A program made the translations under genes and the position numbers. Positions 5,328 to 28,094 of a stretch of 52,845 nucleotides of DNA are shown one piece after another. Source of the stretch: an uncultured Elstera sp. GTDB lineage: Bacteria > Pseudomonadota > Alphaproteobacteria > Elsterales > Elsteraceae. Within the stretch, counting starts at the first letter, position 1, and each line of letters starts with the position of its first letter. Location: contig CAIZEE010000120.1 of NCBI GenBank assembly GCA_903931835.1, positions 1-52,845 on the forward strand, in the 5' to 3' direction. The notes below the pieces were generated by a model. It had not been told where the DNA came from. It saw only the letters and a program-made list of their open reading frames with translations, and searched no databases.

Positions 5328-5828
5328 CTATTCGGTCTCGCGCGGATATCGCTGTTCGATTTCCAGTACTGCGAGGCGGGCGAGCTTTTTCAAAAGGATG
5401 AGCTCCCTATCCTCGACACGCGGATGCGCCACGGAATCGATGATGCATAACGTACCGATCCGGACATTGTTTGAGGTAATCAACGGAACGCCGGCGTAGA
5501 ACCGGATATGGGGTTCGCCAGTCACGAACGGATTGTTTTTGAACTCCGGATCAGTCTTTGCATCGTTGACGATGAAGGCGTCTCTTGGTTCAAGCAGCCT
5601 TGAACAGAACGCCACGTCGAGGCTGCTTTGGCCCCTTGGTATGCCGAAAGCCGCCTTGAACCATTGCCGCTGGTCGTCCAGCAGCGAGATGACGCTGATT
5701 GGCGCATCAACCACCATGGATGCCGCGTGAACCAAGTCATCAAGGACCGCATCGGGGGCGCTGTCCATGATCTTGAGGCGGCTGAGTTCCGCCAGCCGCG
5801 CCGCCGTTTCCTTCGCTACCAGCTTCAT
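5328..5828 (-). CDS. Stand-alone GAF domain protein
   Basis: 166 aa consisting only of a GAF-type module (RLAELSRLKIMDS...QRQWFKAAFG...FYAGVPL...IGTLCIID). It is a paralog of the N-terminal GAF of the kinase at 28323..31940. RBS AAGGGGG lies upstream of the ATG. Confidence 0.85.
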   Translation of the reverse strand: MKLVAKETAARLAELSRLKIMDSAPDAVLDDLVHAASMVVDAPISVISLLDDQRQWFKAAFGIPRGQSSLDVAFCSRLLEPRDAFIVNDAKTDPEFKNNPFVTGEPHIRFYAGVPLITSNNVRIGTLCIIDSVAHPRVEDRELILLKKLARLAVLEIEQRYPRETE

Positions 5829-5910
5829 CTTTGCACCCCCTTTTGTTTATTTAACAAACGATAAGCGCCCCTGTCCCTTCAGCACGACTATTTGTAACTA
5901 CAGTATGCGT

Positions 5911-6624
5911 TCAAACTCTTCGGGTAATTACTTGGTTGAGAAGGCGACTGTTTACGGCGCTTAGCACAACCGGATCAGCATCGAACAGCTCGATCGAGCC
6001 ATCCACGCTCGGCTGCGCCAAGGTCTGCTCGTAACGCTGTTCGGCGGCAACCAGCGTAACTTCCTCGTTGCGGCGCAGCTCCAGCATCTGCACCTTACCG
6101 GTGTCGGGGAAGTAGTGAATGCGACGGGGATGAGCCCCGCGCAAATGGCCGGCGGCAATCGGCAGCCCCTCCGCATCCAGATAATCCTCGACGAAATCGG
6201 CATTCTTCCAGCCGATGGTCGCGCCGTTATTCAGCACGTTGGCGCCACTGAACACCTTTATCTCGAGGCGATCGCGCTTGGCGCCACGCATCAGCAGATC
6301 ATTGATCAGACGCTCCATGGCAAAATTGCCATAGCGCAGGCTGGCCTTCGAGGCCCCCCACTGACCGGCTTCGCTGGAGGGCAGCATGAAGTGGTTCATG
6401 CCGCCAACACCGGCGATCGGGTCGCGGATGCAGGCGGCGACACAGCTACCGAGTACGGTGATGACCGCCGTATCCAGATCGTCGCTGACATAGTGCTCGC
6501 CCGGCAGTACCCGGACCGGCGCACTGGTGGCGTCCAGAGTGGGCACGGACGAAAATGTACGTCCCATCGCGCACCGATCAAAGCGCCGGTCCAGGGTTTG
6601 CGCAATTGGCATAATCATGGTCAT
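5911..6624 (-). CDS. cheD: Chemoreceptor glutamine deamidase CheD (copy 2, with C-terminal extension)
   Basis: CheD core motifs VLGSCVAACIRDP..GVGGMNHFMLP and RYGNFAMERLIN; 237 aa. It follows cheY2 after a 31-nt gap. The exact start (6624, 6618 or 6612) is uncertain. Confidence 0.9.
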   Translation of the reverse strand: MTMIMPIAQTLDRRFDRCAMGRTFSSVPTLDATSAPVRVLPGEHYVSDDLDTAVITVLGSCVAACIRDPIAGVGGMNHFMLPSSEAGQWGASKASLRYGNFAMERLINDLLMRGAKRDRLEIKVFSGANVLNNGATIGWKNADFVEDYLDAEGLPIAAGHLRGAHPRRIHYFPDTGKVQMLELRRNEEVTLVAAEQRYEQTLAQPSVDGSIELFDADPVVLSAVNSRLLNQVITRRV

Positions 6625-6655
6625 GATCGGGCGATCCTATGTCTATCTGTGCAGC

Positions 6656-7021
6656 TCAAGCGCAAACGCGCGTGACGAGTTCGATCAGCTTCGCCGGATC
6701 GAACGGCTTGACGAGCCAGCCGGTGGCGCCTGCCGCCCGTCCTTCCGCCTTCTTCTGCGCATCGCCTTCAGTCGTCAGCATCAGAATCGGAACCGCGCGG
6801 TATTTCGGGTCGTTGCGCAGGCTGCGGATCAGAGACAGACCGTCCATTTTCGGCATGTTCAGGTCGGTGATGATCAGATCGACCGGGCTGCGGTCGAGGG
6901 ACGACAGGGCCTGCTGCCCATCTTCGGCGGATACAACCTGGAAGCCAGCGCTGCTCAACGTGTAGGCGACCAGATCGCGCATCGTCTTTGAGTCGTCTAC
7001 CGCCATAATCCGCTTTTGCAT
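6656..7021 (-). CDS. cheY: Single-domain response regulator CheY (copy 2)
   Basis: 121-aa receiver only: MAVDDSKTMRD, phospho-acceptor context DLIITDLNMPKMDG, and a LVKPF lysine motif. RBS AGGAG is 8 nt upstream. By eye it is about 80% identical to the CheY at 26298..26663. Confidence 0.95.
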   Translation of the reverse strand: MQKRIMAVDDSKTMRDLVAYTLSSAGFQVVSAEDGQQALSSLDRSPVDLIITDLNMPKMDGLSLIRSLRNDPKYRAVPILMLTTEGDAQKKAEGRAAGATGWLVKPFDPAKLIELVTRVCA

Positions 7022-7140
7022 TCGATCGTCTCCTGTTCGCCCAAGGTTTGCGGTTCCGTGTCTGACGGCCCCTGCATTCGCTTCGTGTGAACAGAAGGTA
7101 GCAACTCCTTTTGGTATTGAATGATATGAAGTGTCCTGAT

Positions 7141-7159
7141 TTGTAAGGGAAAGTTACAA
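7141..7159. promoter_or_regulatory. Palindromic candidate operator TTGTAAG-ggaaa-GTTACAA
   Basis: Inverted repeat read directly (6/7 arm complementarity; TTGTAA/TTACAA is perfect). It lies about 120 nt upstream of the cheY2 start and is near-identical to the site at 12270..12289. Confidence 0.5.
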
Positions 7160-7265
7160 TTTCTGTTTACCGCCCATTAACGATAATTTATAGTGAGAAT
7201 TTCATATATTGTAGTATTGATTTTTATAACGTCGCTTTTGGCAGTGAATTGACGCACGCCAATCC

Positions 7266-7291
7266 ACCTTTACTTACAAATATATATAAAA
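7266..7291 (+). promoter_or_regulatory. Shared AT-rich box ACCTTTACTTACAAATATATATAAAA
   Basis: Aligns with 27148..27171 (ACCTTACTCACAAATATATCAAAA), about 21 of 24 positions with two 1-2 nt indels. Both lie in AT-rich islands upstream of cheY-led operons. Confidence 0.4.
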
Positions 7292-7329
7292 CTATATTTC
7301 GTCAAACCGCTAATTAACTATACAGTATA

Positions 7330-7358
7330 TTGACGATAGCGGGCTTGAATGTTCTAAT
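7330..7358 (+). promoter_or_regulatory. Sigma70-like promoter candidate (TTGACG-N17-TCTAAT) facing the REC-EAL gene
   Basis: The hexamers and 17-nt spacer were counted by hand. If used, transcription starts near 7365, which argues against the TTG at 7374 as the translation start. Confidence 0.35.
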
Positions 7359-7547
7359 GCCGCGTGCGCATCTTTGGTCAACTTGATCGGACCGTTAGCG
7401 GCAACGATCTCGGCAGCGCACATTGAGGCCTCACGTTTCATTACAAGAGTTAGTCCTTTCCGACATGTCTCGACACACAGAAACACGGTTCGTCGATATG
7501 GTTGGCCTCAGTTCAAAGACACGCCAATCCTCCGAGGAGTCCGGGAC

Positions 7548-8828
7548 ATGATCGACAGTGCCGATATGATGATGGAAGAACATGGCTTTGAGAGTGACTA
7601 CCTGTCCCTCGCCGTATCACCCGCATCTGAGACGGTCTTTCAACCGAAGGACGTACGCCAGAACAGCGCGCAGTTCGTCGGCGCCAACCGTGTTCTGATC
7701 GTCGATGACGACCCACAGATCCAACGGTTGCTGTCGCAGGTTGCCCGTCGGGTCGGTTATGAAACCATTGCAGCCGACACGATAGATAGCGCACTGGAAT
7801 CGATTCAGGGTGGCGCTGCACTGATCCTGCTCGATCTCCAGCTTGACGGCTGCGACGGCCTTGGCCTGATCGATCGCTTGTCTCTGTCGCATCCCGGCAC
7901 GCCGATCGTGCTAATGAGCGGCTGCGACCCTCGGCTGCTGACGATGGCGGAGAATGCCTGCAAGGAGCATGACTGCACCATCGCCGGCGTCCTGTCCAAG
8001 CCGTTTGAGATGTCGGCGCTCGCCACGATTCTAAAACGCTATCGCCGTGATACGGCGGAGACGGCACGTCAGCGACTGGAACAGGCGATGCGCACCGGCG
8101 CCATCGTTGCGCATTATCAACCGATTGTTGATCTGCAGACCGGAATTCTGGCTGGCGCCGAAGCGCTGGTCCGGTGGGCGCATCCCGAGCTTGGCTTGCT
8201 GTCGCCGGCCAACATCATTCCGCAGGCGGAGGAAAACGGTCTGATGCCGGACTTGACCTTCCTGATGCTGGAACAGGCAATCCGAGACTGGGGAAATTTA
8301 CCGGTTGATTACCGAAACCTAAATGTCGCGGTCAACGTGTCGCCGAGCGTGCTGGCGGATGATCATCTGGTCGTGAAGGTCGTGGAACTGCTCAAGACCT
8401 ATGATTTGCCGCCGGAGCGTCTCACCCTCGAGATCACGGAATCAGCCAGCCTGCTGGACGTTCCCAAGGTTCGCACAGCGCTGTGCCGTCTGCGCCTTCT
8501 CGGCGTGGAATTGTCGTTGGACGATTTTGGTACCGGTTATTCGTCACTCCTGGCGCTGCGCGATCTGCCGTTCAACAAGGTCAAGCTCGACCGGGCATTC
8601 GTCACCCATGCCGATGCCCAGCCCGAACAGCTCGCCATTGCAACCTCGGTCACCCGCCTGGTCCACGACCTCAACCTTAAGCTCGTTGGCGAAGGAATCG
8701 AGTCACAGCAGTGTTTCGATCTATCTCGACAGATTGGCATGGACTACGGACAAGGCTTTTTGATCGCGCGTCCAATTGGCTATAGCGATTTCAGAAAATA
8801 CGCTTGTATGCATCCAAGCATGAACTAG
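7548..8828 (+). CDS. Response-regulator receiver + EAL domain protein (c-di-GMP phosphodiesterase)
   Basis: REC (VLIVDDDPQIQ...LILLDLQLDG...SKPF) followed by an EAL domain with catalytic signatures (EALVRW, LEITES, DDFGTGYSS, KLDRAF, GEGIES, QG). The track ORF extends to TTG 7374. I prefer ATG 7548, preceded by GAGGAG 8 nt upstream. The lower-GC 7374-7547 stretch looks non-coding. Confidence 0.85.
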   Translation: MIDSADMMMEEHGFESDYLSLAVSPASETVFQPKDVRQNSAQFVGANRVLIVDDDPQIQRLLSQVARRVGYETIAADTIDSALESIQGGAALILLDLQLDGCDGLGLIDRLSLSHPGTPIVLMSGCDPRLLTMAENACKEHDCTIAGVLSKPFEMSALATILKRYRRDTAETARQRLEQAMRTGAIVAHYQPIVDLQTGILAGAEALVRWAHPELGLLSPANIIPQAEENGLMPDLTFLMLEQAIRDWGNLPVDYRNLNVAVNVSPSVLADDHLVVKVVELLKTYDLPPERLTLEITESASLLDVPKVRTALCRLRLLGVELSLDDFGTGYSSLLALRDLPFNKVKLDRAFVTHADAQPEQLAIATSVTRLVHDLNLKLVGEGIESQQCFDLSRQIGMDYGQGFLIARPIGYSDFRKYACMHPSMN

Positions 8829-8906
8829 AAATTCAATCAGCAAGCGCGCGACGCCTTACCACAATATCATTCCATGCACATCGATATGGGGGCCTATCAC
8901 TTCGAT

Positions 8907-9096: not shown

Positions 9097-11823
9097 ATGG
9101 TTTCCTGGACGCCTAGTCTCAACACCAGTTCGGGAAAGCCCCGGAAGCTGTTGTGGTTTCAGCGTTGGCGACCGTTGATTGCGATTGTCTTTATCGGCGT
9201 GGCGCTGTCCTGCCTTGCCTTCGTCCTCGCCCAACAGGCGGACGACCGGCGCGTCCGCACGTCTCTCGAACTGCGCGCGCAGTGGCGCGCGCAAGACTTC
9301 CAGGCAAAGCTCCTGGCGGCGGCGGCCCCGATCGAGGCGATCGCAACCTACGTCAACACCAACGGCAATTTCACGCAGGAGCAGTTTCTGCGGCTAGCCG
9401 CTGGGACGCGTGATAACGGCGACGCGACCAGGGTCTTTGCCTGGACACCTCTGATCACCGCCGAAAACCGCGCAGCGTTCGAGCAGGCGGCAGAGGCCGA
9501 CGGTCTTGGCCCCTCTTTCATTGTCGAGCGGCGCGGTGATGGGACCGTCGTGCCCGCCAGCAGCCGCGACTTCTACGTGCCGGTCTGGCTCGAGCATCAT
9601 GGACGGACCGGCGTCGGCCCGTTACGCGGGTTGGACCTGGCCGCCGGCGAAAGGCGACGGCAGGCGATCGAGCAAGCGATCGAAACCGGTCGGCCAGTGG
9701 GTGTCGCCCCGGTGCAGTCGCTTGCCGCGCCAAACAGAGGACCCCGGTATGTCGTCACCTGGCCTATTTTCGCCTCGGGCAAAGCGCCCGCCACGCCCGC
9801 TGAACGCAAGGAGCAGATAAGGGGATTTGTCATCAGCGGGGGGGATTTTGAGACGCTGCTGGTGTCGTCGATCAAGGACACGCCCAAGATTGTCGAAGAT
9901 ATCGTCATATATATCGACGGCCAGCCCGATGGATCGGACAAACCGGCGGCGGTTTATCTGACGGATACCGATACCTTCAAGGTGACCGATCTCGACAAGA
10001 TCGGCGACCTGACAAACTCAGATGGGATCGCCATCTCCCGGCAGTTCGAGGTTCTAGACCGCCAATGGACCCTCAATTTCAAATTCAAGCCGGCGATGAT
10101 CAATCAGCTAAGATCCCCGGCATCCTGGCTTTGGCTTTCGGCGGGCCTGTTGCTGACCTTTATGGCAGCGAATTATGCCGGCCGCGAACGCTTGAAGCGC
10201 GTTCGTGTCGAAGCGGTCGCCTTGCAGCGGACGGAGGAACTGACGGCCAGCAACGAGTCGCTCAACAAAGAGGTCGCGGAGCGCGAGCGGGCCGAACACG
10301 CCCTCCTCCACCACACCAATTTATTGGGCAAGACGCTCGAAGCGTCGCCTTTGGCGATCGTCCATCTGGGACCAAACCGCGAAGTGCTGGTCTGGAACCA
10401 GGGTGCAGAAAACATGTTCGGTTATACTTCGGAAGAGGTGATGGGCCGGCAGTACCCAGTTCTGAGGGACGACGACGAGGAAAGTTTCCGTGAACTGCTT
10501 GACCGCCTGGAGAAAGGTGAAACCGTCCGTGATCGCCCGGTAGATCGCCGGCACAAGGACGGTCGAATCGTAAAGGTCAATACATCTGCCGAGGCAGTTT
10601 ATGAGAATGGCGTATTTCAGGGCGTCGTCATCGTTCTGGAGGATATGACGCAACGCTTCGCACTAGAGGCGCAGCTTCGCCAGGCGCAAAAGATGGAGGC
10701 GATTGGCCAGCTCACTGGCGGCCTTGCCCATGACTTCAATAATCTGCTGCTGGTGATCCTTGGCAATCTCGGACTGTTACTCGAAATCCGAGCCGGTGAT
10801 GGCGAGGTTGAGGAGATTTGCCGCGAAGCACGCGACGCTGCGCTGCGAGGAGCAGAACTCATCAGAAGCCTGCTCGCCTTTGCGCGGCGGCAGCCCTTGC
10901 GCCCGGAACCGATCGACGTCAACGCCCTGATCAACTCGCATTTCAGGCTTCTGCAGCGAACCCTGGGCGAACAGATCGAGGTCACTGTCGATCTGGCCCC
11001 CCGCGTGTGGACCGTCATGGCGGATACAGCGCAACTCGAAGCAGCGCTCGTCAATCTGGCGACCAACGCGCGCGACGCCATGCCCAAGGGCGGGCATCTG
11101 AAGATCGCGACATTGAACCGGCGCCTCGACAAGGATTACGCAGCCGAACATCCGGAGGTGGCGCCCGGCGATCACACGATGATCGAGGTCAGCGACAACG
11201 GCGAGGGAATGCCCCCCGAGGTGATCAGCCATATTTTTGAACCGTTCTTTACCACCAAGGAGCGCGGCGAAGGCACCGGTCTTGGCCTCAGCATGGTGTT
11301 CGGTTTCATGAAACAGTCGGGCGGCCACATCAGTGTGTATAGCGAGGTCGGCGTTGGCACGACCTTTCGTTTGTTCCTACCGCGCGCGAAGGAACCAACC
11401 TCCAGCGACGGGGTAACCGCACCACCGTTGATCCCGATCGGGCGCGGCGAGGCGATCTTGCTGGTAGAAGATAATGACTCGATCCGCCGCCTGGCCGTGC
11501 GTCAGCTGACCCAACTTGGCTATCGGGTGCATGATGTCAGCAATGTCGCCGACGCTATCGATTATCTGGAAAGCGGCAGGCTCGTCGATCTGCTGTTCAC
11601 CGATGTCATTATGCCAGGCGGCGCCGATGGCCTGGATCTCGTCCGCATCGTCCGCGCGCGCTGGCCAAGTATCAAAATCCTGATGTCGTCGGGTTTCCCC
11701 AGCACTGACACGGTATCGGAGGATTTCTCTAACCTTAACGCCCGGCTACTCAGCAAGCCCTACCAGCGCGACGAACTTGCACTTCGAGTGCGCGAGGTTC
11801 TCGACGAAGCGGATCCCTCGTGA
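9097..11823 (+). CDS. CHASE-PAS hybrid sensor histidine kinase with C-terminal receiver
   Basis: 908 aa. It has TM1 ([19 protein letters not shown]) and a periplasmic CHASE-like region ([17 protein letters not shown]...[10 protein letters not shown]...RYVVTWPIF), then TM2 and a PAS domain. The H-box is [13 protein letters not shown], followed by HATPase motifs (NARDAM, DNGEGM, GTGLGLS) and a REC (ILLVEDND...[10 protein letters not shown]...SKPY). Confidence 0.9.
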
Positions 11824-11865: not shown

Positions 11866-12201
11866 TTAGCGGGAGGCCACGGTGATGACGATCGGCGCGT
11901 CGGACACAGAATCACACTTGGTCAACTGCGGTCGCTGATGGGCATATTTAAGAGCCGAAACGAGCTTGCCGACGGCATCGCAAACACTGCCGCCGGTAAC
12001 GGTAACACGGCCGACGGAGACGGATGCCACGCGAGGATCGATCTGTGGCTTCGGCAGGCCGGCCTGGGCGGCCCATTGTTCAACCGCATCGGACAGGCTC
12101 GCCTCGGTCGGGGTTTCCCAATGATGCTTTTCCAGCGCCGGGCCCGAACCGATCACGGTGACGGAAACGGCGATGGCAGCGCTGGCTACGAAAGCGGACA
12201 T
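11866..12201 (-). CDS. Small secreted protein, function unknown (weak TcpQ/PilL-like resemblance)
   Basis: 111 aa with a hydrophobic N-terminus (FVASAAIAVSVTVIG) and two Cys. The segment SLSDAVEQWAAQAGL...AVGKLVSAL loosely resembles TcpQ-type pilus accessory domains. It is divergent from the pilus operon. Confidence 0.5.
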   Translation of the reverse strand: MSAFVASAAIAVSVTVIGSGPALEKHHWETPTEASLSDAVEQWAAQAGLPKPQIDPRVASVSVGRVTVTGGSVCDAVGKLVSALKYAHQRPQLTKCDSVSDAPIVITVASR

Positions 12202-12470: not shown

Positions 12471-12989
12471 ATGATTACCGTATTCAACTCCAAACGTTTT
12501 CTGATCACTGCCAGCACGGCAGCCATGCTTGTGTCGGGCCTGTTCGCGCCATCAGCGAATGCATCGACAACGACAACGTCGGCCTTCCCGGTGACAGCCA
12601 CCGTGTTGTCGGCCTGCATCGTCACGGCCTCGCCGCTCGCCTTCGGCAACTACAACCCGACCTCGGCAACGCCGTTGACCGCCAACACCAACGTCCTGGT
12701 CACCTGCACGTTCGGCACGCCCTACAATGTGGGACTGAACCAGGGTCTCGGCACCGGCGCTACGATCACCAATCGCAAGATGATGTCCGGCGTCAATTCC
12801 CTGACCTATCAGCTATTCCAGGACGCGGGCCACACGACCAATTGGGGCCAGACGATCGGCACCGACACCGAAACCGGCACCGGCACCGGTGTGGCGCAGA
12901 ACTATGTCGTCTATGGCAGCATCCCGGCCTCGCAAGTAGCACCCGCCGGCCTTTATGCCGACACCATCACCGTATCCGTAACCTACTGA
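12471..12989 (+). CDS. SCPU-domain (spore coat protein U / Csu-type) pilin subunit
   Basis: 172 aa. It has a signal peptide ending SANA, a Cys pair (SACIV...LVTCTFG), a Thr/Gly-rich body and a C-terminal beta-strand ADTITVSVTY, typical of SCPU/CsuA-B-like subunits. RBS AGGAG lies upstream. Confidence 0.85.
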   Translation: MITVFNSKRFLITASTAAMLVSGLFAPSANASTTTTSAFPVTATVLSACIVTASPLAFGNYNPTSATPLTANTNVLVTCTFGTPYNVGLNQGLGTGATITNRKMMSGVNSLTYQLFQDAGHTTNWGQTIGTDTETGTGTGVAQNYVVYGSIPASQVAPAGLYADTITVSVTY

Positions 12990-16650: not shown

Positions 16651-16818
16651 ATGACCAGCGTAATCAATCCCCAGCATTTCATGCTCGTTATCGGCGCGTT
16701 GTCCTGCCTAATTTGCGGCATGTTCAGCCAATATCTGTACAACCACGACCTTAGCGTTTCACACAACGGCAATCGCGCCGCCAACATGCATCGCCACGCG
16801 AATACCGCTCGCCCTTAG
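16651..16818 (+). CDS. Candidate 55-aa single-pass membrane peptide (not in ORF track)
   Basis: Hand translation: MTSVINPQHFMLVIGALSCLICGMFSQYLYNHDLSVSHNGNRAANMHRHANTARP*. RBS GAGGAG is 7 nt upstream. There is one hydrophobic helix and an Asn/His-rich tail. Its leader is homologous to the pilin leader. Confidence 0.35.
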   Translation: MTSVINPQHFMLVIGALSCLICGMFSQYLYNHDLSVSHNGNRAANMHRHANTARP

Positions 16819-17577: not shown

Positions 17578-17686
17578 ATCAGCCCCACTCGTTGCCCAGT
17601 CCTGATCCGCAGCGGCGTCGACGCTCTTTGCTCAAGGGACCCACGAAACTGGCATTTTGGAAGGTTTTCTCTCCAGCTCCACGCCA

Positions 17687-19872: not shown

Positions 19873-20528
19873 AGCGGCGTCCCCGTGTCGAACAGCTCTG
19901 CCGAGCCATCGAGCGGCGTTGTCTTGAGCATTTGGCCGTAGCTTTCCTCCGTCTCGACGATCATGAGATCCGACTGACGGCGCAGTTCGAGCATCGCCAC
20001 CTTGCCGGTGCTGGGAACGTAATGAATGCGCCGCGGGTAAATGCCGTAGAGGTGTCGCGCCGAGATCGGCAATCGTTCAGCGGCGAGATAAGACTCAACA
20101 AATTGCGCGTTAAGCCACCCGATATTGCTGCCGTTCTGAAGCACATTGGCGCCACCGAAAACCTTTATTTCCAGTGAGTTGCGGCGACCGCCGCGCACCA
20201 AAATGTCGTTGATCAGCCGCTCCATCGCGAAATTTCCGTATCTGAGGCTGGCCGTCGCCTCCCCCCAATCGCCGCTTTCGCTCTGCGGCAACATAAAATG
20301 GTTCATGCCGCCAACCTCCGCCGCGTGGTCGCGGATACAGGCGGAAACGCAGCTGCCGAGCACCGTCACGATGGTTCGCCCCGGATCGTCGGTCACGTGA
20401 TGCTCGCCCGGCAGAACACGCACCTTGGTTAGTTCGAGCGGCGCCTCTTCAAGTGACACGACAGGGAATGCCGCCGAACGGCGGTCGAAGGCCGGCTGGC
20501 AGTAAGACAGCGCGTGCCCTCGACTCAT
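19869..20528 (-). CDS. cheD: Chemoreceptor glutamine deamidase CheD (copy 1)
   Basis: CheD motifs VLGSCVSACIRDH..VGGMNHFMLP and RYGNFAMERLIN. I chose the internal ATG at 20528 (MSRGHALSY...), 2 nt after the cheR stop. The track ORF up to 20738 would overlap cheR by about 200 nt. Confidence 0.88.
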   Translation of the reverse strand: MSRGHALSYCQPAFDRRSAAFPVVSLEEAPLELTKVRVLPGEHHVTDDPGRTIVTVLGSCVSACIRDHAAEVGGMNHFMLPQSESGDWGEATASLRYGNFAMERLINDILVRGGRRNSLEIKVFGGANVLQNGSNIGWLNAQFVESYLAAERLPISARHLYGIYPRRIHYVPSTGKVAMLELRRQSDLMIVETEESYGQMLKTTPLDGSAELFDTGTPL

Positions 20529-20530: not shown

Positions 20531-21367
20531 TCAGGAAACCTTCTGGTAAATAGTGCGGCCGAGATGGCGGAACCGGTCGGAGACGCCGTATAGCGTTTCG
20601 GAATGCCCAACGAACAACCAGCCGCCCGGCACCAGAAAATCGGCATAGCGGGCGAATAAGCTGCGTTGATCGTCCTTGCTGAAATAGATCACGACGTTGC
20701 GGCAGAAGATGACGTTGAACGGCCCCCGCATCGGCCACGGATCGAACAGATTCAAAGGGTTAAACGTGATCAACTCCTTCAGATCATCGGCCGCAACGAC
20801 ATGGCCTTCGTCGGCCTTGCGGAAGAAGCGCCGGCGATATTCGGCGGATACTGTCGACAAGCGCGACGCGTCATATCGGCCCGCCTTGGCGTGTGCGACC
20901 ATGTTGGTATCGATATCGGTGGCAAGGATCTTTGCATCCCAATTCGGCCCGGCGCCGAGCTTGTCGCGCACCGTCATCGCAATCGAATAGGGCTCCTCGC
21001 CAGAAGAGCATCCGGCCGACCAGATGCGCAGGCGGCTGGTGCTCGCCTGTTCCTTGAGCTCCGCCAGAACGGTATCGCCCAGGAATTCGAAATGATGCGG
21101 CTCGCGAAAGAAGCCGGTGAGGTTGGTCGTAATGGCGTTGACCATATTACGACGTTCGGCCTCACCATCCTCGCTCTCCAAAAGCTCGCAATATTCGCTG
21201 AAGTCGCTGAGCCCCATCGCTCTCAGACGCTTCGCCAGGCGGCCATAGACAAGGTCGCGTTTTTGAGCGCTGAGAACGATGCCGGTTTCTTCGCGCACCA
21301 AACGGACGATTGTCGAAAACTCACCTTCGCCGAGCGGAAATTGAGTGCGCTGTTGCAAGCCAGACAT
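20531..21367 (-). CDS. cheR: Chemotaxis protein methyltransferase CheR
   Basis: 278 aa. CheR N-domain (FREPHHFEFL) and SAM-binding domain (RIWSAGCSSGEEPYSIAM, FCRNVVIYF). Confidence 0.95.
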   Translation of the reverse strand: MSGLQQRTQFPLGEGEFSTIVRLVREETGIVLSAQKRDLVYGRLAKRLRAMGLSDFSEYCELLESEDGEAERRNMVNAITTNLTGFFREPHHFEFLGDTVLAELKEQASTSRLRIWSAGCSSGEEPYSIAMTVRDKLGAGPNWDAKILATDIDTNMVAHAKAGRYDASRLSTVSAEYRRRFFRKADEGHVVAADDLKELITFNPLNLFDPWPMRGPFNVIFCRNVVIYFSKDDQRSLFARYADFLVPGGWLFVGHSETLYGVSDRFRHLGRTIYQKVS

Positions 21368-21381
21368 GGCCCACCCCTGCC

Positions 21382-23643
21382 CTAGAATTCCTGCCAGTCA
21401 GTATCGACGGCAGTAGCAGCTTTGCTCGTTCCGTTCGACCGCGGCATCGCCTTGGCCGCAGCCCGCATCGGGCTTCTGCTAGGGGCCGGTACTTTAGGCT
21501 TGCGCACGTCCGGTGCGGCACTTGCGGTTGGACGCCGGGCCGGCATGCGGGCAGGCGCCTCATCCTCAAGCAAGGTGAAGCCCGCGACCATCTCGGCCAA
21601 GGATGAGGTCTGTTCCTCCATTGATTTCGCGGCAGCCGCAGCTTGTTCGACCAAAGCGGCGTTCTGCTGGGTGATCTTGTCCATCTGGGTGACGGCGGTA
21701 TTGACCTGTTCGATGCCGGCACTCTGTTCCTGCGAAGCCGCAGAAATCTCCGCGATGATATCGGTCACACGCCTTACCGACATGACGATCTCATCCATCG
21801 TCTTGCCGGCGCTATCGACAAGTTTCGATCCGGATTCGACCTTGGAGACGGAGTCGGAAATCAGCGCCTTGATCTCCTTCGCCGCATTCGCGCTGCGTTG
21901 TGCCAGATTGCGAACCTCAGCGGCGACAACTGCAAAGCCCCGTCCCTGTTCGCCGGCCCTCGCCGCCTCGACTGCGGCGTTGAGCGCCAGGATATTGGTC
22001 TGGAACGCAATCTCGTCGATCACGCCGATAATATCGGCGATCTTGCGGCTAGCCTCGCTGATCCCCTCCATCGTGGAGACAACTTCGGTGACGACATGGC
22101 CACCTTTCACCGCAACATCGGAGGCGGAGTTGGAGAGCTTGTTCGCCTGCTGCGCGCTTTCGGCGTTCTGACGCACTGTGGTGGTCAGTTCCTCCAGGCT
22201 AGCCGCCGTTTCCTCAAGGCTTGAAGCCTGTTCCTCGGTGCGTTGGGACAGATCGGTGTTACCCATCGCAATTTCGCGTGATGCCGTGCTGATCGTCTCC
22301 GCCGCCTCGATGATGCCGCCGATGATTGTCGTCATGCTATCGAGCAAGCCGTTGACGCCGGCGCAGAGTTCACCGATCTGGCCGTCCTTGCCATCCATTG
22401 GCACGCGCCGCGACAAGTCATTTTCCTTCGCCGCCGTCACCACTTCCTGTGTCTGCTCGACTGCGAGTTGGAGGGCGCGCGAGGCATTGACCTGGGCGGT
22501 AATGTCGGCGGCGAACTTGACCACCTTGAAGGGTTTTCCCTCCGCATTGAGGATCGGGTTGTAGCTCGCCTGCAACCACAGCTCGCGGCCGCCCTTGGCG
22601 ACACGACGGTATTGCCCGGCGTCGTATTCACCGCGTCCCAGTTTGTCCCAGAACAAGCGATATTCGGCCCCTTGCCGTTCGATCGGGTCGACGAACAGCG
22701 AGTGGTGCTGCCCCTTGATCTCGTCGAGCGAATAGCCGACGGCTTTGAGGAAATTCTCATTCGCCATAACGATCTTGCCGTCGAGGGTGAATTCGATCAC
22801 CGCCTGGGCCTTGCTGATCGCCGCCAACTGGCCTTCAAAATCGGAATTTCGGATCATCTGCTTGGTGATGTCGGTCGCGTATTTGACGACCTTGAACGGC
22901 TTGCCGTCAGCATTGAGGATCGGGTTGTAGCTCGCCTCGAGCCAGATATCCCGCCCACCCTTGCCGATGCGCTTGTACTGACCGGCATCGAACTCGCCGC
23001 GGCCAAGTCGCTCCCAGAACATCCGATACTCGGCACTCTGGCGGTAGGACGGCTCGACGAACATACCATGGTGCTGGCCCCTGATCTCGTCGATCGAGTA
23101 GCCGACCGTGCTCAGGAAATTCTCGTTGGCGTTCAGAATCTTGCCGTCGAGCGTGAACTCGATCACCGCCTGCGACTTGCCGATCGCCGCCAGTTGGCCC
23201 TCAAAATCGGCGTTCCGAAGCTTCTGATCGGTTATGTCGGCCGCATACTTCACGACCTTGAAAGGTCTGCCCTCGATATCCAGGATCGGGTTATAGCTCG
23301 CCTCTAGCCAGATTTCCCGGCCGCCCTTGCCGACACGCTTATACTGCCCGGCATCGTATTCACCCCGACCGAGCCGCTCCCAGAACATCCGATACTCGAC
23401 ACTCTGCCGGAACGCGGGATCGACGAACATCCCGTGATGTTGCCCCTTGACCTCGTCCAGCGAGTAGCCGACCGTTTTCAGGAAATTCTCATTTGCCGTC
23501 AGGATCCTGCCATCCGGTGTGAATTCGATGACAGCTTGTGATTTGTCGAGAGCGGCAATCTTGCCCTTCAACTCCCGCAGCTCGGCTTTTTGATTGTCGT
23601 TGCTGGAACCGTTTTGGCTGAGAACGTTGGTGAACCAGGACAT
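21382..23643 (-). CDS. Cytoplasmic methyl-accepting chemotaxis protein with three tandem PAS domains and a C-terminal DWQEF pentapeptide
   Basis: 753 aa with no TM segment. Three 122-aa PAS units are followed by the canonical MCP tip ([40 protein letters not shown]). A Pro/Ala/Lys-rich tether ends in DWQEF, which fits the xWxxF CheR/CheB docking pattern. Confidence 0.95.
22468..23565 (-). repeat. Intragenic tandem triplication, period 366 nt (3 x PAS unit)
   Basis: The landmark GATCGGGTT recurs at 22552, 22918 and 23284 (spacing exactly 366 nt). The protein units [29 protein letters not shown]...YR.FW..LGRGE.DAGQY.R..KGGR..WL.ASYNPIL...G.PFKVVK.A.DIT are highly similar. Confidence 0.9.
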
Positions 23644-23691: not shown

Positions 23692-24231
23692 TCAGGCGGC
23701 CTGGATGGCCAGGGGGGCGATGGGCTCGCCATCGCCGTGATTGCCGAAAAGCCCGTCGAGCGAGACCAGCGTCACCATCCGGTCGCCGAGAGCCGCGAGC
23801 CCTTGCAGAAAATCGGCATCGACCGACATGCCCATCTCAGGCACCGGGCGGATCGCCTCAGCTTCGACCGATATGATGTCTGACACCGTGTCGACCAGCA
23901 GCCCGATGGTGCGCTGACCGTTGGTTACGATGATCACCACATGCATGCGCGTCGGTTCGGTCATCCCCATGCCGAAACGGGCGCGCAGATCAAAGATCGG
24001 CACGATAACGCCGCGCAGATTGATCACGCCGCGAACATGAGGCGGCGCGTTGGGGATGGTGGTAGTGACCGTCCAGCCCTTGATCTCCCGCACGACCATG
24101 ATGTCGATACCGTATTCCTCGACGCCGAGCGTAAAGGTGATGAATTGCAGCGCCGTATCGCTGGCGCTGGCCAGCAGATCGGGAACGTGCTGACCGACTG
24201 ATTTTGCAGGCGTGAGCTCAACAGCATTCAT
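23692..24231 (-). CDS. cheW: Chemotaxis coupling protein CheW
   Basis: The internal ATG at 24231 (MNAVELTP...) gives 179 aa with CheW motifs (FITFTLGVEEYGIDIMVVREI, VINLRGVIVPIFDLR). The longer track ORF (to 24405) overlaps cheA. Confidence 0.9.
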   Translation of the reverse strand: MNAVELTPAKSVGQHVPDLLASASDTALQFITFTLGVEEYGIDIMVVREIKGWTVTTTIPNAPPHVRGVINLRGVIVPIFDLRARFGMGMTEPTRMHVVIIVTNGQRTIGLLVDTVSDIISVEAEAIRPVPEMGMSVDADFLQGLAALGDRMVTLVSLDGLFGNHGDGEPIAPLAIQAA

Positions 24232-24250
24232 GATCGAGCGTCCTTCGGGG

Positions 24251-26287
24251 TTAGTGAAGACCAGGCGGCGGTGATATGTTCTGTTCGCTGGAAGTGATGG
24301 ACGGGCGCCGCGCGGACGGCGAAATAATGTCGCGCAGGCGACCGATATCGAGGATGAGGGCAACCCTGCCATTGCCGAGAATTGTGGCGCCGCTGATCCC
24401 CTCAACCGGGTCGTAATTGGCCTCCAGGCTTTTCACGACGACCTGCTGTTGGCCGACTAGCTCATCGACCACGAGGCACATCCGCCCATCGCCCTCGCTT
24501 TCGACGATCATGACGATGCCGCGACAGGGATCGGTCACGGCGTCGGCGACATTGAAATGCCGATGCAGATAGACCAGCGGCAGGTATTCGCCACGGATGG
24601 CGAGCACGTCGCCCGCTCCTAAAACCGGGCGGATATCAGCCGGTTTCGGTCGCAGGCTTTCGCGAATCTGAGTCAGCGGCACGATGTAGGTTTCAGCGCC
24701 AACCGCGACGACCATGCCGTCGAGCACCGCGAGCGTCAGTGGCAGTGACAGGACAAATCGCGACCCTACGCCGAACTGAGATTCCACCGTGATGCGTCCG
24801 CCCAGCGCCTGCATGTTGCGCTTGACCACATCCATGCCAACGCCGCGGCCGGAGATGCTGGAGATGTTTTCCGCAGTGGAAAAGCCGGGCAGAAAAATCA
24901 GATTGTCGATTTCCTCGTCCGACAGCGCGCTGCCGGGCGCCACTAACCCGCGCGACTCGGCCTTTGCCAGTACGCGGGCGCGATCGATGCCACGGCCATC
25001 GTCGCTTATCTCGATGACGATCCGTCCACTGCGATGACCGGCACCGAGATGGATCGTGCCTTGACGGGGCTTACCCGCAGCCTCGCGCTGATCCGGCATC
25101 TCGATGCCGTGGTCGAGCGCATTGCGCAGCAAATGGGTCAACGGATCGGCCAGCTGCTCGATCACAGTCTTGTCGATTTCCGTACCTTCGCCGGTGACGA
25201 CCAGCCGGACCTCTTTCTGGAGCTGTCCGGCCACTTCGCGGACCAGCCGGGGCATACGGGCGAAGACCGATTTGACCGGCTGCGCGCGCATCGCCATCAC
25301 GCCTTCTTGAAGCTCGCGTAAATGCTGCGACAGCGTCTCCAGCCCGTTGACCAGACCCGGGCAAAGATCGGGCGGCAAATCGCTGCTGAGTTCGGACAGC
25401 ATCGCCTGGTTGATCACCAGTTCGCCGACCAGATTGACCACGCGGTCGACCTTGTCGACATCGACACGGATGGAATGGGGCGCGCCCGCGTCGCTCTTAC
25501 CGGTTTCGGTCAGCACGGTCGGCTGGGCCGACGGCACGGTTGCCAAAGGTCGTTCAACCTTGGCGGGTTGAAGATGCGTGGAGATGGTCAGGTCGCAATC
25601 GTCGACGACGAAGTCGAAGATTTCCTCGATCACCGATTTCGGGGCGGTCGTCTTGAGGCTGATCGACCAACTGAGATAGGCGTGCTCCGGCTCGATCGCG
25701 CCAAGCCGGGGAAGGCGGCTTAGATCAACTGCGACCGTTGCCTCGCCCAGCCGCTTCAGCTCGCGGATCAGCAAAAGCGGTTCGTTCGCGCGCTTGAAAA
25801 GCTCGGGATGCGGCTCGAAGCGGATTTCATAAGTCCGCATCACCTCAGGCTCGTCGGCCACGACCATCTGTTTTGCAGGTACCTTAGCACCCTTGGCCGG
25901 CCCGATCTCAGCAGCGGCCTCAAGCAGGGCGACCAGCTCGTTCTCAAATCCCGGCGGCGGATCGCGCTCAACCCGCGCGGCGTCGATCAGGTCGCTCAGC
26001 GTATCGGTCGCTTTGATGAGCAGGGCCGCCATGTCGGTGGTCGGCATTTGTCCATCGGCCCGCAACAGATCGAGCAGGGTCTCCAGCACATGCGCGAACT
26101 TGACCAGCCGCTCGAACCCGAACGCCCCGCCACCGCCCTTGATCGAATGGACGGCGCGAAAGACCGCATGCATCGTCTCGCCATCCGCCCCGCCATCGGC
26201 AAACAACGCGAGATAGCCGTACAACGCGTCGAGGAGTTCGGAGCACTCCTCAAAATAGGTCGTCTTGAACTGGTCGATACTGGCCAT
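24251..26287 (-). CDS. cheA: Chemotaxis histidine kinase CheA
   Basis: Hpt (FRAVHSIKGGGGAFGF), dimerisation and HATPase regions (HLLRNALDHGIE, DDGRGID, GRGVGMDVV) and a C-terminal CheW-like domain. The preferred start is ATG 26287 (MASIDQFK), 10 nt after the cheY stop. Confidence 0.95.
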   Translation of the reverse strand: MASIDQFKTTYFEECSELLDALYGYLALFADGGADGETMHAVFRAVHSIKGGGGAFGFERLVKFAHVLETLLDLLRADGQMPTTDMAALLIKATDTLSDLIDAARVERDPPPGFENELVALLEAAAEIGPAKGAKVPAKQMVVADEPEVMRTYEIRFEPHPELFKRANEPLLLIRELKRLGEATVAVDLSRLPRLGAIEPEHAYLSWSISLKTTAPKSVIEEIFDFVVDDCDLTISTHLQPAKVERPLATVPSAQPTVLTETGKSDAGAPHSIRVDVDKVDRVVNLVGELVINQAMLSELSSDLPPDLCPGLVNGLETLSQHLRELQEGVMAMRAQPVKSVFARMPRLVREVAGQLQKEVRLVVTGEGTEIDKTVIEQLADPLTHLLRNALDHGIEMPDQREAAGKPRQGTIHLGAGHRSGRIVIEISDDGRGIDRARVLAKAESRGLVAPGSALSDEEIDNLIFLPGFSTAENISSISGRGVGMDVVKRNMQALGGRITVESQFGVGSRFVLSLPLTLAVLDGMVVAVGAETYIVPLTQIRESLRPKPADIRPVLGAGDVLAIRGEYLPLVYLHRHFNVADAVTDPCRGIVMIVESEGDGRMCLVVDELVGQQQVVVKSLEANYDPVEGISGATILGNGRVALILDIGRLRDIISPSARRPSITSSEQNISPPPGLH

Positions 26288-26297
26288 GCGATGTCCC

Positions 26298-26663
26298 TCA
26301 GGCGCAGATGCGGTTCGCAAGCTCGACTAATTTTTCCGGGTTGAACGGCTTGACCAGCCATCCGGTCGCGCCGGCAGCACGCCCTTCCGCCTTCTTGTCG
26401 GCGTCGCCCTCCGTGGTCAGCATCAGGATCGGAACCGCCCGGTATTTGGGATCGGCGCGCAGGTTCCGGATCAGCGATATGCCATCCATATTCGGCATAT
26501 TGAGATCGGTGATAATGAGATCGACCTCAGTCTTGCGCAGGGCGCTGAGGGCCTTTTGTCCATCCTCGGCCGCCTCGACCAGGAAGCCGGCCGTGCTGAG
26601 CGTGAACACCACCATGTCGCGCATAGTCTTGGAGTCGTCTACCGTCATGATGCGCTTTTGCAT
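26298..26663 (-). CDS. cheY: Single-domain response regulator CheY (copy 1)
   Basis: 121-aa receiver only (MTVDDSKTMRD, DLIITDLNMPNMDG, LVKPF). Confidence 0.95.
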   Translation of the reverse strand: MQKRIMTVDDSKTMRDMVVFTLSTAGFLVEAAEDGQKALSALRKTEVDLIITDLNMPNMDGISLIRNLRADPKYRAVPILMLTTEGDADKKAEGRAAGATGWLVKPFNPEKLVELANRICA

Positions 26664-26675
26664 GTCACACCCCCC

Positions 26676-26957
26676 TCACGAGAACAGGCTTTGATCGAGC
26701 CCGAGATCAGCGATCGCCTGGCTCAAAACAGGCGATGGCGTAACAAGGCGCAACGCGGCCCCTTGCGAGCGAGCGGTGATCGACGCCGTTACGATGATTT
26801 GCAGGCAAGCCGTGGAAACCCGTTCCACAGCACTACCATCGAGCTCCAGAAGATCCTCTGAGCCAAGATGCGTCCTCAGTTCCTCGCAGAGCGGCACCGC
26901 CGCCAGCAAATCCAGAACAGGTGACAAATGAATCGGGACTGACGCCTGATTCTGCAT
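26676..26957 (-). CDS. STAS-domain protein (CheS/anti-sigma-antagonist-like), first gene of the che operon
   Basis: 93 aa with a STAS-like pattern (LELDGSAVERVSTACLQIIVTA). Its position ahead of cheY-cheA matches alphaproteobacterial che operons. RBS GAGGAG lies upstream. Confidence 0.75.
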   Translation of the reverse strand: MQNQASVPIHLSPVLDLLAAVPLCEELRTHLGSEDLLELDGSAVERVSTACLQIIVTASITARSQGAALRLVTPSPVLSQAIADLGLDQSLFS

Positions 26958-26989
26958 CGATTTCGCGCTCCTCTATGTCGTGCCTCATT

Positions 26990-27280
26990 CGGTCCGCTAG
27001 GGACGACCGCGAAATGGCCGTGAATAAATAGAGAACTGGCAAAACTTTACATTCAAGTAAATTCTATGGTTAAAAACTCCTTTATGAAGATCATACATCC
27101 GTATGCATATGTCATTAAGTGATTTGTTGAAGTATATTCCGCATCGAACCTTACTCACAAATATATCAAAATCGGCATTACGCTTACGTCACTCTTCAAA
27201 AAAATGATTATAACAATTATTTTTACATAATTATTGTACGATATTAATGCAGAATTTATTCGCTGAAGGGGAGGCTTTTG
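26990..27280. other. AT-rich island upstream of the main che operon
   Basis: Hand count of 27041-27100 gives about 27% G+C. The long A/T runs contrast with the flanking >60% G+C coding DNA. Confidence 0.9.
27148..27171 (+). promoter_or_regulatory. Shared AT-rich box ACCTTACTCACAAATATATCAAAA
   Basis: Counterpart of 7266..7291, about 190 nt upstream of the STAS/che operon start. Confidence 0.4.
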
Positions 27281-27458
27281 CCCAAAATAACGCCGTGTTC
27301 CGCCTGTTTCTGTGGCTTTAATAGAAATGATACGGCGGCAGCCTATTCGGACGCCGGCCGATCACTCCAAGCCAAAATAGGCGCGACACCATGCACCCCT
27401 ATAAACCGGGAGATGCAGTGGAAGAGACCTGCGGTTTTAATCGGCCGACAATGCGAGC

Positions 27459-28094
27459 CTAAATATCCACGCCACTTTCCAGCGTGAGCTTGACCGCTTG
27501 AACGCGGCTTTGAACTCCCAGTTTGCGATAAATCGTTCTGAGATAAAGCCCGACGGTGACGGGTTCTAGCGATAGATTCCGACCAATTTCGATGTTGCTG
27601 GCACCAGTGCAAAGCTCGCGGAGAACTTGAAATTCGCGCTTGGTGAGCGCCGAGAACACGCCCCCACCATTTGGTGACGACCCGACGGCAGAATCGACGC
27701 TCCCTGACGCATCAGAGCCTGGAAAGAACCGGTCACCTGAAGCCATGGCGCGAATGGCATTCAGCATGTCCTTTAGCCGAATCGTCTTCGGGATGAAGCC
27801 GACAGCGCCAGCCGCCCTCGCCCCCTCGGCATTCGCTGCGGATACTTCGCCGGACATGACGGCTATCGGAACATTGGGGAGTTTGCGCCTTACCGCAGCC
27901 AATCCACTGAGCCCGTTCATTCCGGGCATGTGCAGGTCCAGCACGATAAGGGCGAGCTGATCGCTATCCGCATGGGCCAGAACAGAGGCCAGATCAGCGA
28001 CGGTTTCGACGGTCAAGTCGGGGGCCAGCCCGCTGGATTGAAGCTCCAGCGTATCGGTTAGCAGGGTATGATCATCCGCGACAAGAATCCGCAT
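27459..28094 (-). CDS. NarL/FixJ (LuxR-type HTH) response regulator
   Basis: 211 aa. REC (ILVADDH...IVLDLHMPGMNG) plus a GerE/LuxR HTH (LTKREFQVLRELCTGASNIEIGRNLSLEPVTVGLYLRTIYRKLGV). It is divergent from the hybrid kinase at 28323. Confidence 0.9.
   Translation of the reverse strand: MRILVADDHTLLTDTLELQSSGLAPDLTVETVADLASVLAHADSDQLALIVLDLHMPGMNGLSGLAAVRRKLPNVPIAVMSGEVSAANAEGARAAGAVGFIPKTIRLKDMLNAIRAMASGDRFFPGSDASGSVDSAVGSSPNGGGVFSALTKREFQVLRELCTGASNIEIGRNLSLEPVTVGLYLRTIYRKLGVQSRVQAVKLTLESGVDI

Follow-up and report, generated by a model that had tools for sequence, protein, structure and literature searches.

The DNA analyzed here, referred to as the window, is one whole metagenome contig of 52,845 bp from an uncultured Elstera sp. 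(contig CAIZEE010000120.1). Between positions 5328 and 28094 it carries a block of chemosensory (che) genes, an archaic chaperone-usher pilus operon, and genes for two-component and cyclic diguanylate (c-di-GMP) signaling. An initial annotation of this block had described a che gene set that is split around the pilus operon and had proposed a module by which the Che pathway controls the pilus. Pfam searches confirmed all of the genes listed there, including their order and strands. The best-supported reading of the block is that of two autonomous systems of known kinds in juxtaposition, with signs of regulatory integration in a shallow lineage. In our judgment, the block is probably a mosaic composed of two units that were inherited separately:

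5328 to 17577 (GAF gene plus 7022 to 17577): unit P, an archaic, Csu-type pilus operon with its own control genes
17687 to 26957: unit C, a complete chemosensory operon of the ancestral F7 type

The junctions that connect the pilus genes, ompR, and the che genes are not an assembly chimera, because independent metagenome contigs span them: near-identical contigs from other public pond metagenome runs cross 14616–16880, 16658–18220, and 17531–18124. The window sequence was detected in pond, freshwater, permafrost, and moss metagenomes, and no match was found in any RNA run searched. A plasmid search returned no close replicon; the matches (70–74%) were confined to the segments coding for PAS domains and methyl-accepting chemotaxis protein (MCP) domains. 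The lineages compared comprise four contig sets in which the che cluster adjoins the pilus (the window, L081/82, L090/91, and L096), three pilus lineages devoid of che genes (L092/93, L097, and L098) plus Lacibacterium (L094), and five che lineages devoid of a pilus (L001, L083, L084, L085/86, and L088/89). Relatives of the che cluster were anchored on the McpA-like protein, and relatives of the pilus on the usher. Few independent lineages could be sampled because generic motifs flooded the results of the two large collection scans: a profile search of genome contigs with an McpA-like alignment was dominated by the generic MCP motif, with L001 as the sole true relative among the matches listed, and a search of metagenome contigs with the CHASE kinase was dominated by the generic kinase motif, with only L098 being useful among the matches listed.

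Unit C consists of nine genes on the minus strand, given here in the direction of transcription:

26676..26957, minus strand: STAS protein (anti-sigma-factor-antagonist-like), first gene of the che operon (Pfam STAS_2, E 6e-12)
26298..26663, minus strand: CheY1 (Pfam Response_reg)
24251..26287, minus strand: CheA with Hpt, dimerization, HATPase, and CheW-like domains, without C-terminal receiver (Pfam)
23692..24231, minus strand: CheW (Pfam CheW; start placed by the orthologue length of 179 aa)
21382..23643, minus strand: Aer2-like cytosolic receptor with three tandem PAS domains, a HAMP-like linker, and a 36H signaling domain (Pfam)
20531..21367, minus strand: CheR methyltransferase (Pfam CheR_N and CheR)
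19869..20528, minus strand: CheD1 (Pfam CheD; start placed by a check of start codon and ribosome-binding site and by orthologue lengths)
18850..19872, minus strand: CheB methylesterase (Pfam)
17687..18823, minus strand: McpA-like soluble, MCP-like protein ending in SVELF (weak MCPsignal match, 56.7 bits)

The intergenic gaps within this operon (26957 to 17687) do not exceed 48 nt. Its assignment to class F7 rests on the architecture and, as a proxy for class-specific hidden Markov models, on identity to the E. coli F7 proteins (CheB 58%, CheW 49%, CheA 42% over the full length, CheR 41%). Both receptors had been described as cytoplasmic, and indeed neither contains a hydrophobic segment (maximal 19-residue Kyte–Doolittle means of 1.33 and 1.38). 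The signaling domain of the Aer2-like receptor aligns without gaps with those of E. coli Tar and Tap (36H; 54% identity), and its C-terminus, DWQEF, fits the x-[HFYW]-xx-[HFYW] pentapeptide rule. The McpA-like family, whose gene comes after cheB (or cheD) in every related cluster, shares an invariant QFQD motif and the C-terminal sequence GS[VI]ELF with an invariant final F; position 2 is valine in the window.

The receptor PAS region (22498–23529) is composed of three 366-nt tandem repeats that are 76% identical, one for each PAS domain. The L090 orthologue is longer by one extra PAS unit (874 aa vs 753 aa in the window), and joints of the skip and go-back type occur there in metagenome contigs; strains seem to differ in their number of PAS copies. 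Upstream of the operon lies an AT-rich stretch of 500 nt (26958–27458, G+C about 0.53–0.55) with several A/T palindromes, for which an Rfam scan was negative.

The most ancient form of the F7 cluster has been termed stage 1, and alphaproteobacterial F7 systems were placed in a separate clade (Ortega et al. 2020, PMC7184735). Stage-1 clusters, such as Vibrio cholerae cluster III and that of Methylomicrobium alcaliphilum, read anti-sigma-factor antagonist, cheY, cheA, two cheW, aer2-like, cheR, cheD, cheB, mcpA-like, second antagonist, and serine phosphatase; Pseudomonas aeruginosa Che2 belongs to stage 2 (PMC7184735). The role of these ancestral-type systems in gammaproteobacteria is nonflagellar, stress-related, or unclear, and their usual neighbor is a partner-switch phosphatase (PMC7184735). 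Unit C follows this order from STAS to the mcpA-like gene. The STAS gene is located 12 nt upstream of cheY1, directly ahead of the cheY–cheA pair, CheA lacks a fused receiver, and the receptor is cytosolic, PAS-bearing, 36H, and pentapeptide-ended. Like its stage-1 counterpart, the McpA-like protein eludes heptad-class assignment, and its C-terminus (SVELF) lacks the aromatic residue at position 2. Unit C differs from stage 1 in that the host is an alphaproteobacterium, that there is one cheW instead of two (as in the relatives L001, L083, and L088), that the receptor combines three tandem PAS domains with a single HAMP-like linker, and that the McpA-like protein has no transmembrane segment, unlike gammaproteobacterial McpA. 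In addition, the downstream STAS and serine phosphatase genes are missing, with ompR in their slot, and an additional cheY–cheD pair occurs elsewhere in the block. Pfam detected no SpoIIE or HATPase_c_2 family and no partner-switch gene in the 52.8-kb window. The expectation that this cluster is not of the standard, flagellar-operon-linked type was borne out, and its layout is the ancestral one of stage 1; also as annotated, flagellar genes are absent, with no flagellar family found by Pfam in any large open reading frame (ORF) of the window. The ACF (Wsp-like) and Tfp (Chp-like) classes were considered and rejected, given a CheA without receiver, no GGDEF gene in the cluster, a cytosolic 36H receptor, and the gene order.

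Related che clusters in a Rhodopseudomonas metagenome-assembled genome (L001), a metagenomic contig (L083), and Azospirillum argentinense (L088/89) also read STAS-CheY-CheA-CheW-MCP-CheR-CheD-(CheB)-McpA-like and continue with a partner switch of STAS, an RsbW-like kinase, and REC-PP2C, to which L083 adds an EAL domain and L001 adds Hpt and a hybrid kinase. In L085/86 the cluster is followed by a GAF-GGDEF gene and in L084 by unrelated genes. No pilus or ompR gene was found beside the che cluster in any of these five lineages. Genes for c-di-GMP enzymes occur at two of the loci, namely, GAF-GGDEF after the McpA-like gene (L085, 5660–7258) and REC-PP2C-EAL after the STAS/RsbW pair (L083, 12013–14433), which points to a recurrent link between this che class and c-di-GMP.

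The only experimentally studied alphaproteobacterial relative that we identified is Che4 of Azospirillum brasilense, an F7 system that sets the flagellar reversal frequency (PMC6759762). The A. argentinense cluster L088/89 shares the gene order of the window, encodes proteins that are 34–62% identical to those of the window, and contains a 36H HAMP-PAS-HAMP receptor that fits Tlp4a of the che4 operon. On the basis of this receptor architecture, rather than a locus tag, L088/89 is equated with Che4, the probable homologue of the window cluster. In contrast to the window, Che4 has a membrane-bound receptor that contains HAMP domains and a CZB domain; a STAS/RsbW module and two REC-PP2C genes come after its cluster, and no pilus genes adjoin it. 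Since Che4 controls flagella, neither the cytoplasmic location of the window receptors nor the lack of nearby flagellar genes can be used as an argument against a role in motility. Indeed, unit C could be an ordinary flagellar pathway for energy taxis or aerotaxis that came to lie beside an independently regulated pilus by pure chance, with any motifs common to the two being duplicated or AT-rich promoter DNA. The function of this probable homologue and the Tar-like 36H class of the receptor with its CheR-tethering pentapeptide are in line with such a chance neighborhood. Against it stands the finding that the gammaproteobacterial F7 systems of stages 1 and 2 do not drive the motor (PMC7184735). 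With the regulatory sequences described below also taken into account, we regard this explanation as rather unlikely.

The pilus genes and the genes associated with them are the following:

7548..8828, plus strand: REC-EAL response regulator, 426 aa (Pfam EAL, E 2.5e-64, and REC)
9097..11823, plus strand: CHASE-PAS-HisKA-HATPase-REC hybrid sensor kinase with an N-terminal transmembrane segment (Pfam)
11866..12201, minus strand: conserved 111-aa protein with hydrophobic N-terminus, divergent from the pilin gene (50–55% identical and syntenic in L092, L097, and L098)
12471..12989, plus strand: major SCPU-domain pilin, CsuA/B-like (Pfam SCPU, E 2.6e-34)
13009..13752, plus strand: PapD-like periplasmic chaperone (Pfam PapD_N, E 1.8e-17)
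13759..16053, plus strand: outer-membrane usher (Pfam Usher, E 1.5e-22)
16050..16523, plus strand: second SCPU subunit, its start overlapping the usher stop codon (Pfam SCPU, E 1.3e-27)
16651..16818, plus strand: 55-codon hydrophobic ORF, orf55 (65–83% identical in L082, L090, and L096)
16861..17577, minus strand: OmpR-family response regulator (Pfam REC and Trans_reg_C)

With SCPU pilins, a PapD-like chaperone, and an usher in one operon, this is an archaic (sigma, Csu-type) pilus. The N-termini of the structural proteins are all hydrophobic. The last subunit is a single SCPU domain of 157 aa, and a gene for a larger adhesin was not seen in the operon. An ORF at 12341–13012 was discarded as a spurious frame across the pilin gene. 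The REC-EAL gene starts at 7548, as in its orthologues, instead of at the mechanical ORF start at 7374. The boundaries listed for the second SCPU gene, cheD1, cheW, and cheA are probable. The encoded protein contains the motifs DDFGTGYSS, EGIE, and QG, with EIT in place of the EAL motif, and is a probable c-di-GMP phosphodiesterase. Pfam found no Hpt match in the CHASE kinase, and no Hpt gene lies nearby.

The two units are inherited independently, as each of them is found in other lineages without the other. The che-less loci L092/93 and L097 read REC-EAL, CHASE-PAS kinase, small minus-strand ORF, SCPU, PapD, usher, SCPU, and convergent OmpR, followed by housekeeping genes (peptidase M19, TIM, and SecG) and no che cluster; L098 contains the matching left half of the unit, again with no che cluster nearby. 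All nine genes of the che-less loci (9/9) are orthologous to those of the window, with identities ranging, OmpR apart, from about 45% (PapD, L097) to 64% (pilin). The usher is 55% (L092/93) and 58% (L097) identical to that of the window, REC-EAL is 49–52% and the CHASE kinase 55–57% identical in L092, L097, and L098, with the kinase in syntenic position, and OmpR, convergent with the pilus operon in L092 and L097, reaches 78–79% in pairwise comparison and 76–78% by tblastn. Among DNA-binding proteins, OmpR alone accompanies the pilus unit. The Lacibacterium pilus (L094, 46%) is accompanied by a different kinase/regulator pair and no che genes. Since REC-EAL, the CHASE kinase, and OmpR travel with the pilus in che-less relatives, they are to be counted as genes of the pilus operon. 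In this respect the proposed Che-to-pilus module lost three of its members, although the adjacency of ompR and the pilus to the che cluster does recur in four contig sets.

This adjacency follows a consistent pattern. In L096 (usher 76%) and L090/91 (73%) the pilus genes are followed by orf55, ompR, the McpA-like gene, cheB, and the rest of the cluster, and L081/82 shares the junction of pilus, ompR, and che. The adjacency is thus conserved in these contig sets and the window, but it is confined to a shallow clade with che proteins that are about 81–99% identical, as judged from the more distant che-cluster relatives, which have no neighboring pilus. OmpR is 97–99% identical among the che-adjacent relatives, the enzymes and the receptor 88–99%, and CheD1 and the McpA-like protein 81–93%. 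The presence of orf55 is restricted to the che-adjacent relatives.

The pilus proteins have diverged from those of L082, L090, and L096 (second SCPU subunit 64–66%; PapD 62–66%; usher 73–76%, or 55% for the C-terminus in L082; orf55 65–83%), and the pilus allele of the window is the outlier among close relatives. This divergence suggests that pilus alleles were replaced or that diversifying selection on the pilus was strong; the breakpoint would fall between ompR and orf55. The protein encoded at 11866–12201 (the small secreted protein of the initial annotation), which has no Pfam family match, is divergent from pilin in every lineage with this pilus unit, like an accessory of this pilus type. 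A 24-nt element, CAATTCC[AG]AAAACTACTTAACTCG, occurs about 80 nt upstream of both the pilin and the orf55 start (12367–12390 and 16547–16570), each copy being followed by a similar GGAGCAA ribosome-binding context. It is kept at both sites in L096 and is also present in L090 and L082, and may represent a shared leader or regulatory element.

Control of chaperone-usher pili by genes of this kind has precedents. In P. aeruginosa, the Roc1 system of the Cup fimbriae consists of RocS1, RocA1, and the REC-EAL protein RocR (PMC3083521), while PvrSR/RcsCB, the genes of which are encoded beside the pilus genes, control the cupD fimbriae (PMC2696094). Both sets use a sensor kinase, a DNA-binding activator, and a REC-EAL antagonist acting via c-di-GMP to govern a chaperone-usher pilus (PMC3083521, PMC2696094). 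The window likewise holds a kinase, a helix-turn-helix regulator, and a REC-EAL protein, and these are syntenic with the pilus in che-less relatives. However, the window kinase combines a CHASE sensor with a receiver and lacks Hpt, whereas the Roc and Pvr-Rcs kinases are of the unorthodox type, whose Hpt domain contacts both regulators; furthermore, the regulator is OmpR-type, and the pilus is archaic (SCPU) rather than classical. From the conserved synteny we infer that a Roc-like, three-part control may operate on the window pilus. For the archaic Csu pilus of Acinetobacter baumannii, expression depends on the OmpR-family regulator of BfmRS (PMC8304980). The window pilus resembles Csu as an archaic chaperone-usher pilus with SCPU-type subunits and an OmpR-family regulator gene. 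In contrast to csuA/BABCDE, it has four structural genes, with no two-domain, CsuE-like tip adhesin evident in the window. Compared to BfmRS, the regulator gene is adjacent to and convergent with the pilus operon, and REC-EAL and the CHASE hybrid kinase belong to the unit.

The left end of unit P is an operon that had been taken as the second half of a split che set:

6656..7021, minus strand: CheY2, single-domain receiver (Pfam Response_reg), paralogue of CheY1 with 79% protein and 78% nucleotide identity
5911..6624, minus strand: CheD2 (Pfam CheD), paralogue of CheD1, 63.5% identical
5328..5828, minus strand: stand-alone GAF protein, last gene of the cheY2-cheD2-GAF operon (Pfam GAF, E 5e-13)

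L178, a close relative that stems from the sample of L081, reads IspE, GAF, CheD2, and CheY2, followed by divergent REC-EAL and kinase genes. In the more distant L180 (GAF 70%, REC-EAL 80%, kinase 72%, and IspE 68% identical to the window), IspE and GAF directly adjoin the divergent REC-EAL and kinase genes, cheY and cheD being absent, and the GAF leader is the counterpart of the leader ahead of cheY2 in the window. The gene arrangement thus identifies GAF as the older neighbor of REC-EAL. The extra cheY–cheD pair was either inserted into the GAF operon of unit P in the window lineage or lost in L180. Since the full che set is contiguous on one side of the pilus and cheY2/cheD2 are additional paralogues missing from L180, the claim of a split che set had to be abandoned. 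The idea that the GAF protein might be a relic of the GAF-GGDEF gene of L085 was dropped because no similarity was detected.

The control regions of the block share several sequence elements:

7022..7547, no strand: AT-rich divergent control region with palindrome, 18-mer, and 13-mer
7141-7159, no strand: palindrome TTGTAAGGGAAAGTTACAA in the region between cheY2/GAF and REC-EAL, conserved in L178 and L180
7268-7285, minus strand: 18-mer ATATATTTGTAAGTAAAG upstream of cheY2
7441-7453, no strand: REC-EAL promoter 13-mer TTACAAGAGTTAG, exact in the window, L092, L097, L178, and L180
12270..12289, no strand: pilin-promoter palindrome TTGTAAGGTTGCGCTTACAA, candidate operator with the pattern TTGTAA-N7/8-TTACAA
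27149-27166, minus strand: 18-mer ATATATTTGTGAGTAAGG upstream of the che operon, matching the cheY2 18-mer

The claim that distinct transcription units share cis-elements proved well founded, and these elements are not random: the TTGTAA-N7/8-TTACAA palindrome occurs twice in the window versus 0.00 expected occurrences, and the 18-mer pattern common to both che promoters, ATATATTTGT[AG]AGTAA[AG]G, has two window matches versus 0.01 expected. The half-site TTGTAAG is found five times in 2.15 kb of intergenic DNA of the block versus 0.24 expected, a count reached by none of 2000 composition-matched shuffles (0/2000). Che-less relatives carry TTTGTAAGCGAACGTAAAGGTTCCTTACAA at the position of the pilin-promoter operator, and the che-promoter 18-mer resembles the left part of the pilin operator. 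Because no other DNA-binding protein is conserved with the unit, OmpR is the most straightforward candidate for the factor that would bind the operators. These observations also bear on the possibility of a chance neighborhood. While the independent inheritance of the two units and the occurrence of the 18-mer at two sites only are compatible with it, the enrichment of TTGTAAG far above the shuffles, the conservation of the palindrome and the 13-mer across lineages, and the position of cheY2 and cheD2 precisely inside the regulatory operon of the pilus unit argue for more than coincidence. The same is true for a deletion that tightened the che–ompR junction in one lineage.

The initial annotation had pointed to this junction. 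The OmpR gene does lie close behind the last che gene on the same strand, beginning 109 nt (rather than 110 nt) past the stop codon of the McpA-like gene:

17578..17686, minus strand: spacer between the McpA-like gene and ompR, 109 nt, conserved in L090

A scan for terminators found no terminator-like hairpin and no structured RNA in this spacer, the predicted fold of which is less stable than that of shuffled sequence (z +1.8). In L081/82 a 94-nt deletion shortens the distance from the McpA-like stop codon to the start of ompR to 15 nt (L081 9806–9825; L082 1284–1303). Both contigs come from one sample, and the deletion therefore counts as a single observation. The che-less L092 has a stand-alone ompR with its own upstream region of 209 nt that is unrelated in sequence. 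Given the missing terminator and the tightened gap, read-through from the che operon into ompR is plausible.

An alternative is an integrated Che-to-pilus pathway, in which the F7 array would have lost its partner-switch output and CheA, directly or via CheY2, would phosphorylate OmpR and/or REC-EAL, so that the redox or energy state sensed by the PAS domains would set both pilus expression and c-di-GMP. In other systems, receivers that carry output domains are known substrates of CheA kinases. In the window, ompR follows the last che gene on the same strand, where other alphaproteobacterial F7 clusters have REC-PP2C, REC-PP2C-EAL, or GAF-GGDEF genes; the spacer is free of terminators, and the deletion in L081/82 in effect fuses ompR to the operon. 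Copies of cheY and cheD reside in the GAF operon of the pilus unit behind a palindrome that also occurs at the pilin promoter, the 18-mer of both che promoters resembles the pilin operator, and the contig contains no partner-switch gene. On the other hand, che-less pilus units carry orthologues of OmpR, REC-EAL, and the CHASE kinase, which implies that a cognate kinase is already present. The adjacency is found only among relatives with about 81–99% che identity, the OmpR receiver gave no match to the receivers of REC-PP2C proteins from other F7 clusters and does not stand out as similar to them, and the probable homologue Che4 signals to the flagellar motor. On balance, we consider an integrated pathway of this type unlikely.

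Several observations nevertheless weigh against a mere juxtaposition of two autonomous units. First, ompR occupies the slot that harbors receiver-containing output genes in other F7 clusters, just as a true rewiring would look. Second, OmpR and the che proteins are 91–99% conserved among close relatives, as opposed to 55–76% for the pilus structural proteins; ompR (97–99%) thus co-varies with che rather than with the pilus genes, and the contrast between the conserved ompR and the diverged pilus alleles indicates that ompR has recently stayed linked to the che side. Third, because no Hpt domain is present in or near the CHASE kinase, a Roc-like phosphorelay to OmpR and REC-EAL is not the sole possible wiring. 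Finally, the 18-mer is known from two sites in the window, and the contigs of che-adjacent relatives end before the region upstream of STAS in which it lies. Specific to this shallow lineage of freshwater alphaproteobacteria are an F7 operon without the downstream STAS/RsbW/REC-PP2C genes, its head-to-tail position upstream of ompR, and the cheY/cheD copy in the GAF operon. These sequence features could be taken to mean that the F7 array lost its partner switch and was rewired to the Csu-type pilus, with CheA or CheY2/CheD2 feeding OmpR and/or REC-EAL, a scenario that appears doubtful to us.

Two autonomous but juxtaposed systems would work as follows. The membrane-bound CHASE-PAS hybrid kinase would sense a periplasmic cue and phosphorylate the OmpR-type regulator, which may act at the TTGTAAG/CTTACAA operators ahead of the pilin, REC-EAL, and GAF genes. 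The same kinase may also phosphorylate the REC-EAL phosphodiesterase, which would lower c-di-GMP as a counterweight. Unit C would build a cytoplasmic array around the Aer2-like receptor with its three PAS domains, 36H signaling domain, and pentapeptide; CheR, CheB, and CheD would provide adaptation, and CheY1 would be the direct output. The link between units P and C would then consist in co-expression, by read-through into ompR and by operator-like sites in both che promoters; direct phosphotransfer from Che to the pilus unit seems unlikely.

A literature search for a Che pathway tied to chaperone-usher pili returned general reviews only. If the rewiring were true, it would be the first case of a Che pathway that controls an archaic chaperone-usher pilus, pilin expression would serve as a simple read-out of F7 signaling, and the locus would show how Che pathways gain new outputs. 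The output of ancestral-type F7 systems is still unresolved (PMC7184735), and in the window the partner-switch neighbor is swapped for a transcription factor gene. With a neutral adjacency, by contrast, the locus would be no more than two systems of familiar kinds lying side by side. The comparison also delineates a conserved control unit of Csu-type pili in bacteria other than the pathogens in which such pili are mostly investigated, comprising the GAF protein, REC-EAL, the CHASE hybrid kinase, OmpR, and the operator motifs.

Two further genes mark the borders of the block:

5221..5294, plus strand: tRNA-Gln (ARAGORN and Rfam), left border, context only
27459..28094, minus strand: NarL-type regulator (Pfam REC and GerE)

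The tRNA-Gln gene, which lies 34 nt away from where the genes of the block begin, raises the question as to whether the whole block could be a horizontally acquired island inserted there, its genes being neighbors simply through joint arrival. The G+C content dips to 0.53–0.55 at 7–9 kb and 26–29 kb, and che-less pilus units are located at another chromosomal site, beside peptidase M19, TIM, and SecG. However, the dips coincide with AT-rich intergenic control regions, Pfam revealed no integrase or transposase family in the window, and the 3′ end of tRNA-Gln is not repeated anywhere in the window. In addition, the IspE-GAF|REC-EAL-kinase arrangement is shared with the 70–80% identical L180, which argues for vertical inheritance at this site. 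With no direct repeat, no integrase, and an IspE flank in common with L180, we rejected an origin of the block as a tRNA-Gln island, which is very improbable.

The NarL gene is divergent from a gene beyond the annotated block (28323–31940) that codes for a 1205-aa GAF-PAS-GAF-PAS-HisKA-HATPase-REC hybrid kinase. Pairing of NarL with this kinase is more plausible than with the che or pilus genes, and NarL was not retained as a member of the module. The core of the kinase encoded at 28323–31940 is 40–48% identical to that of the CHASE kinase.

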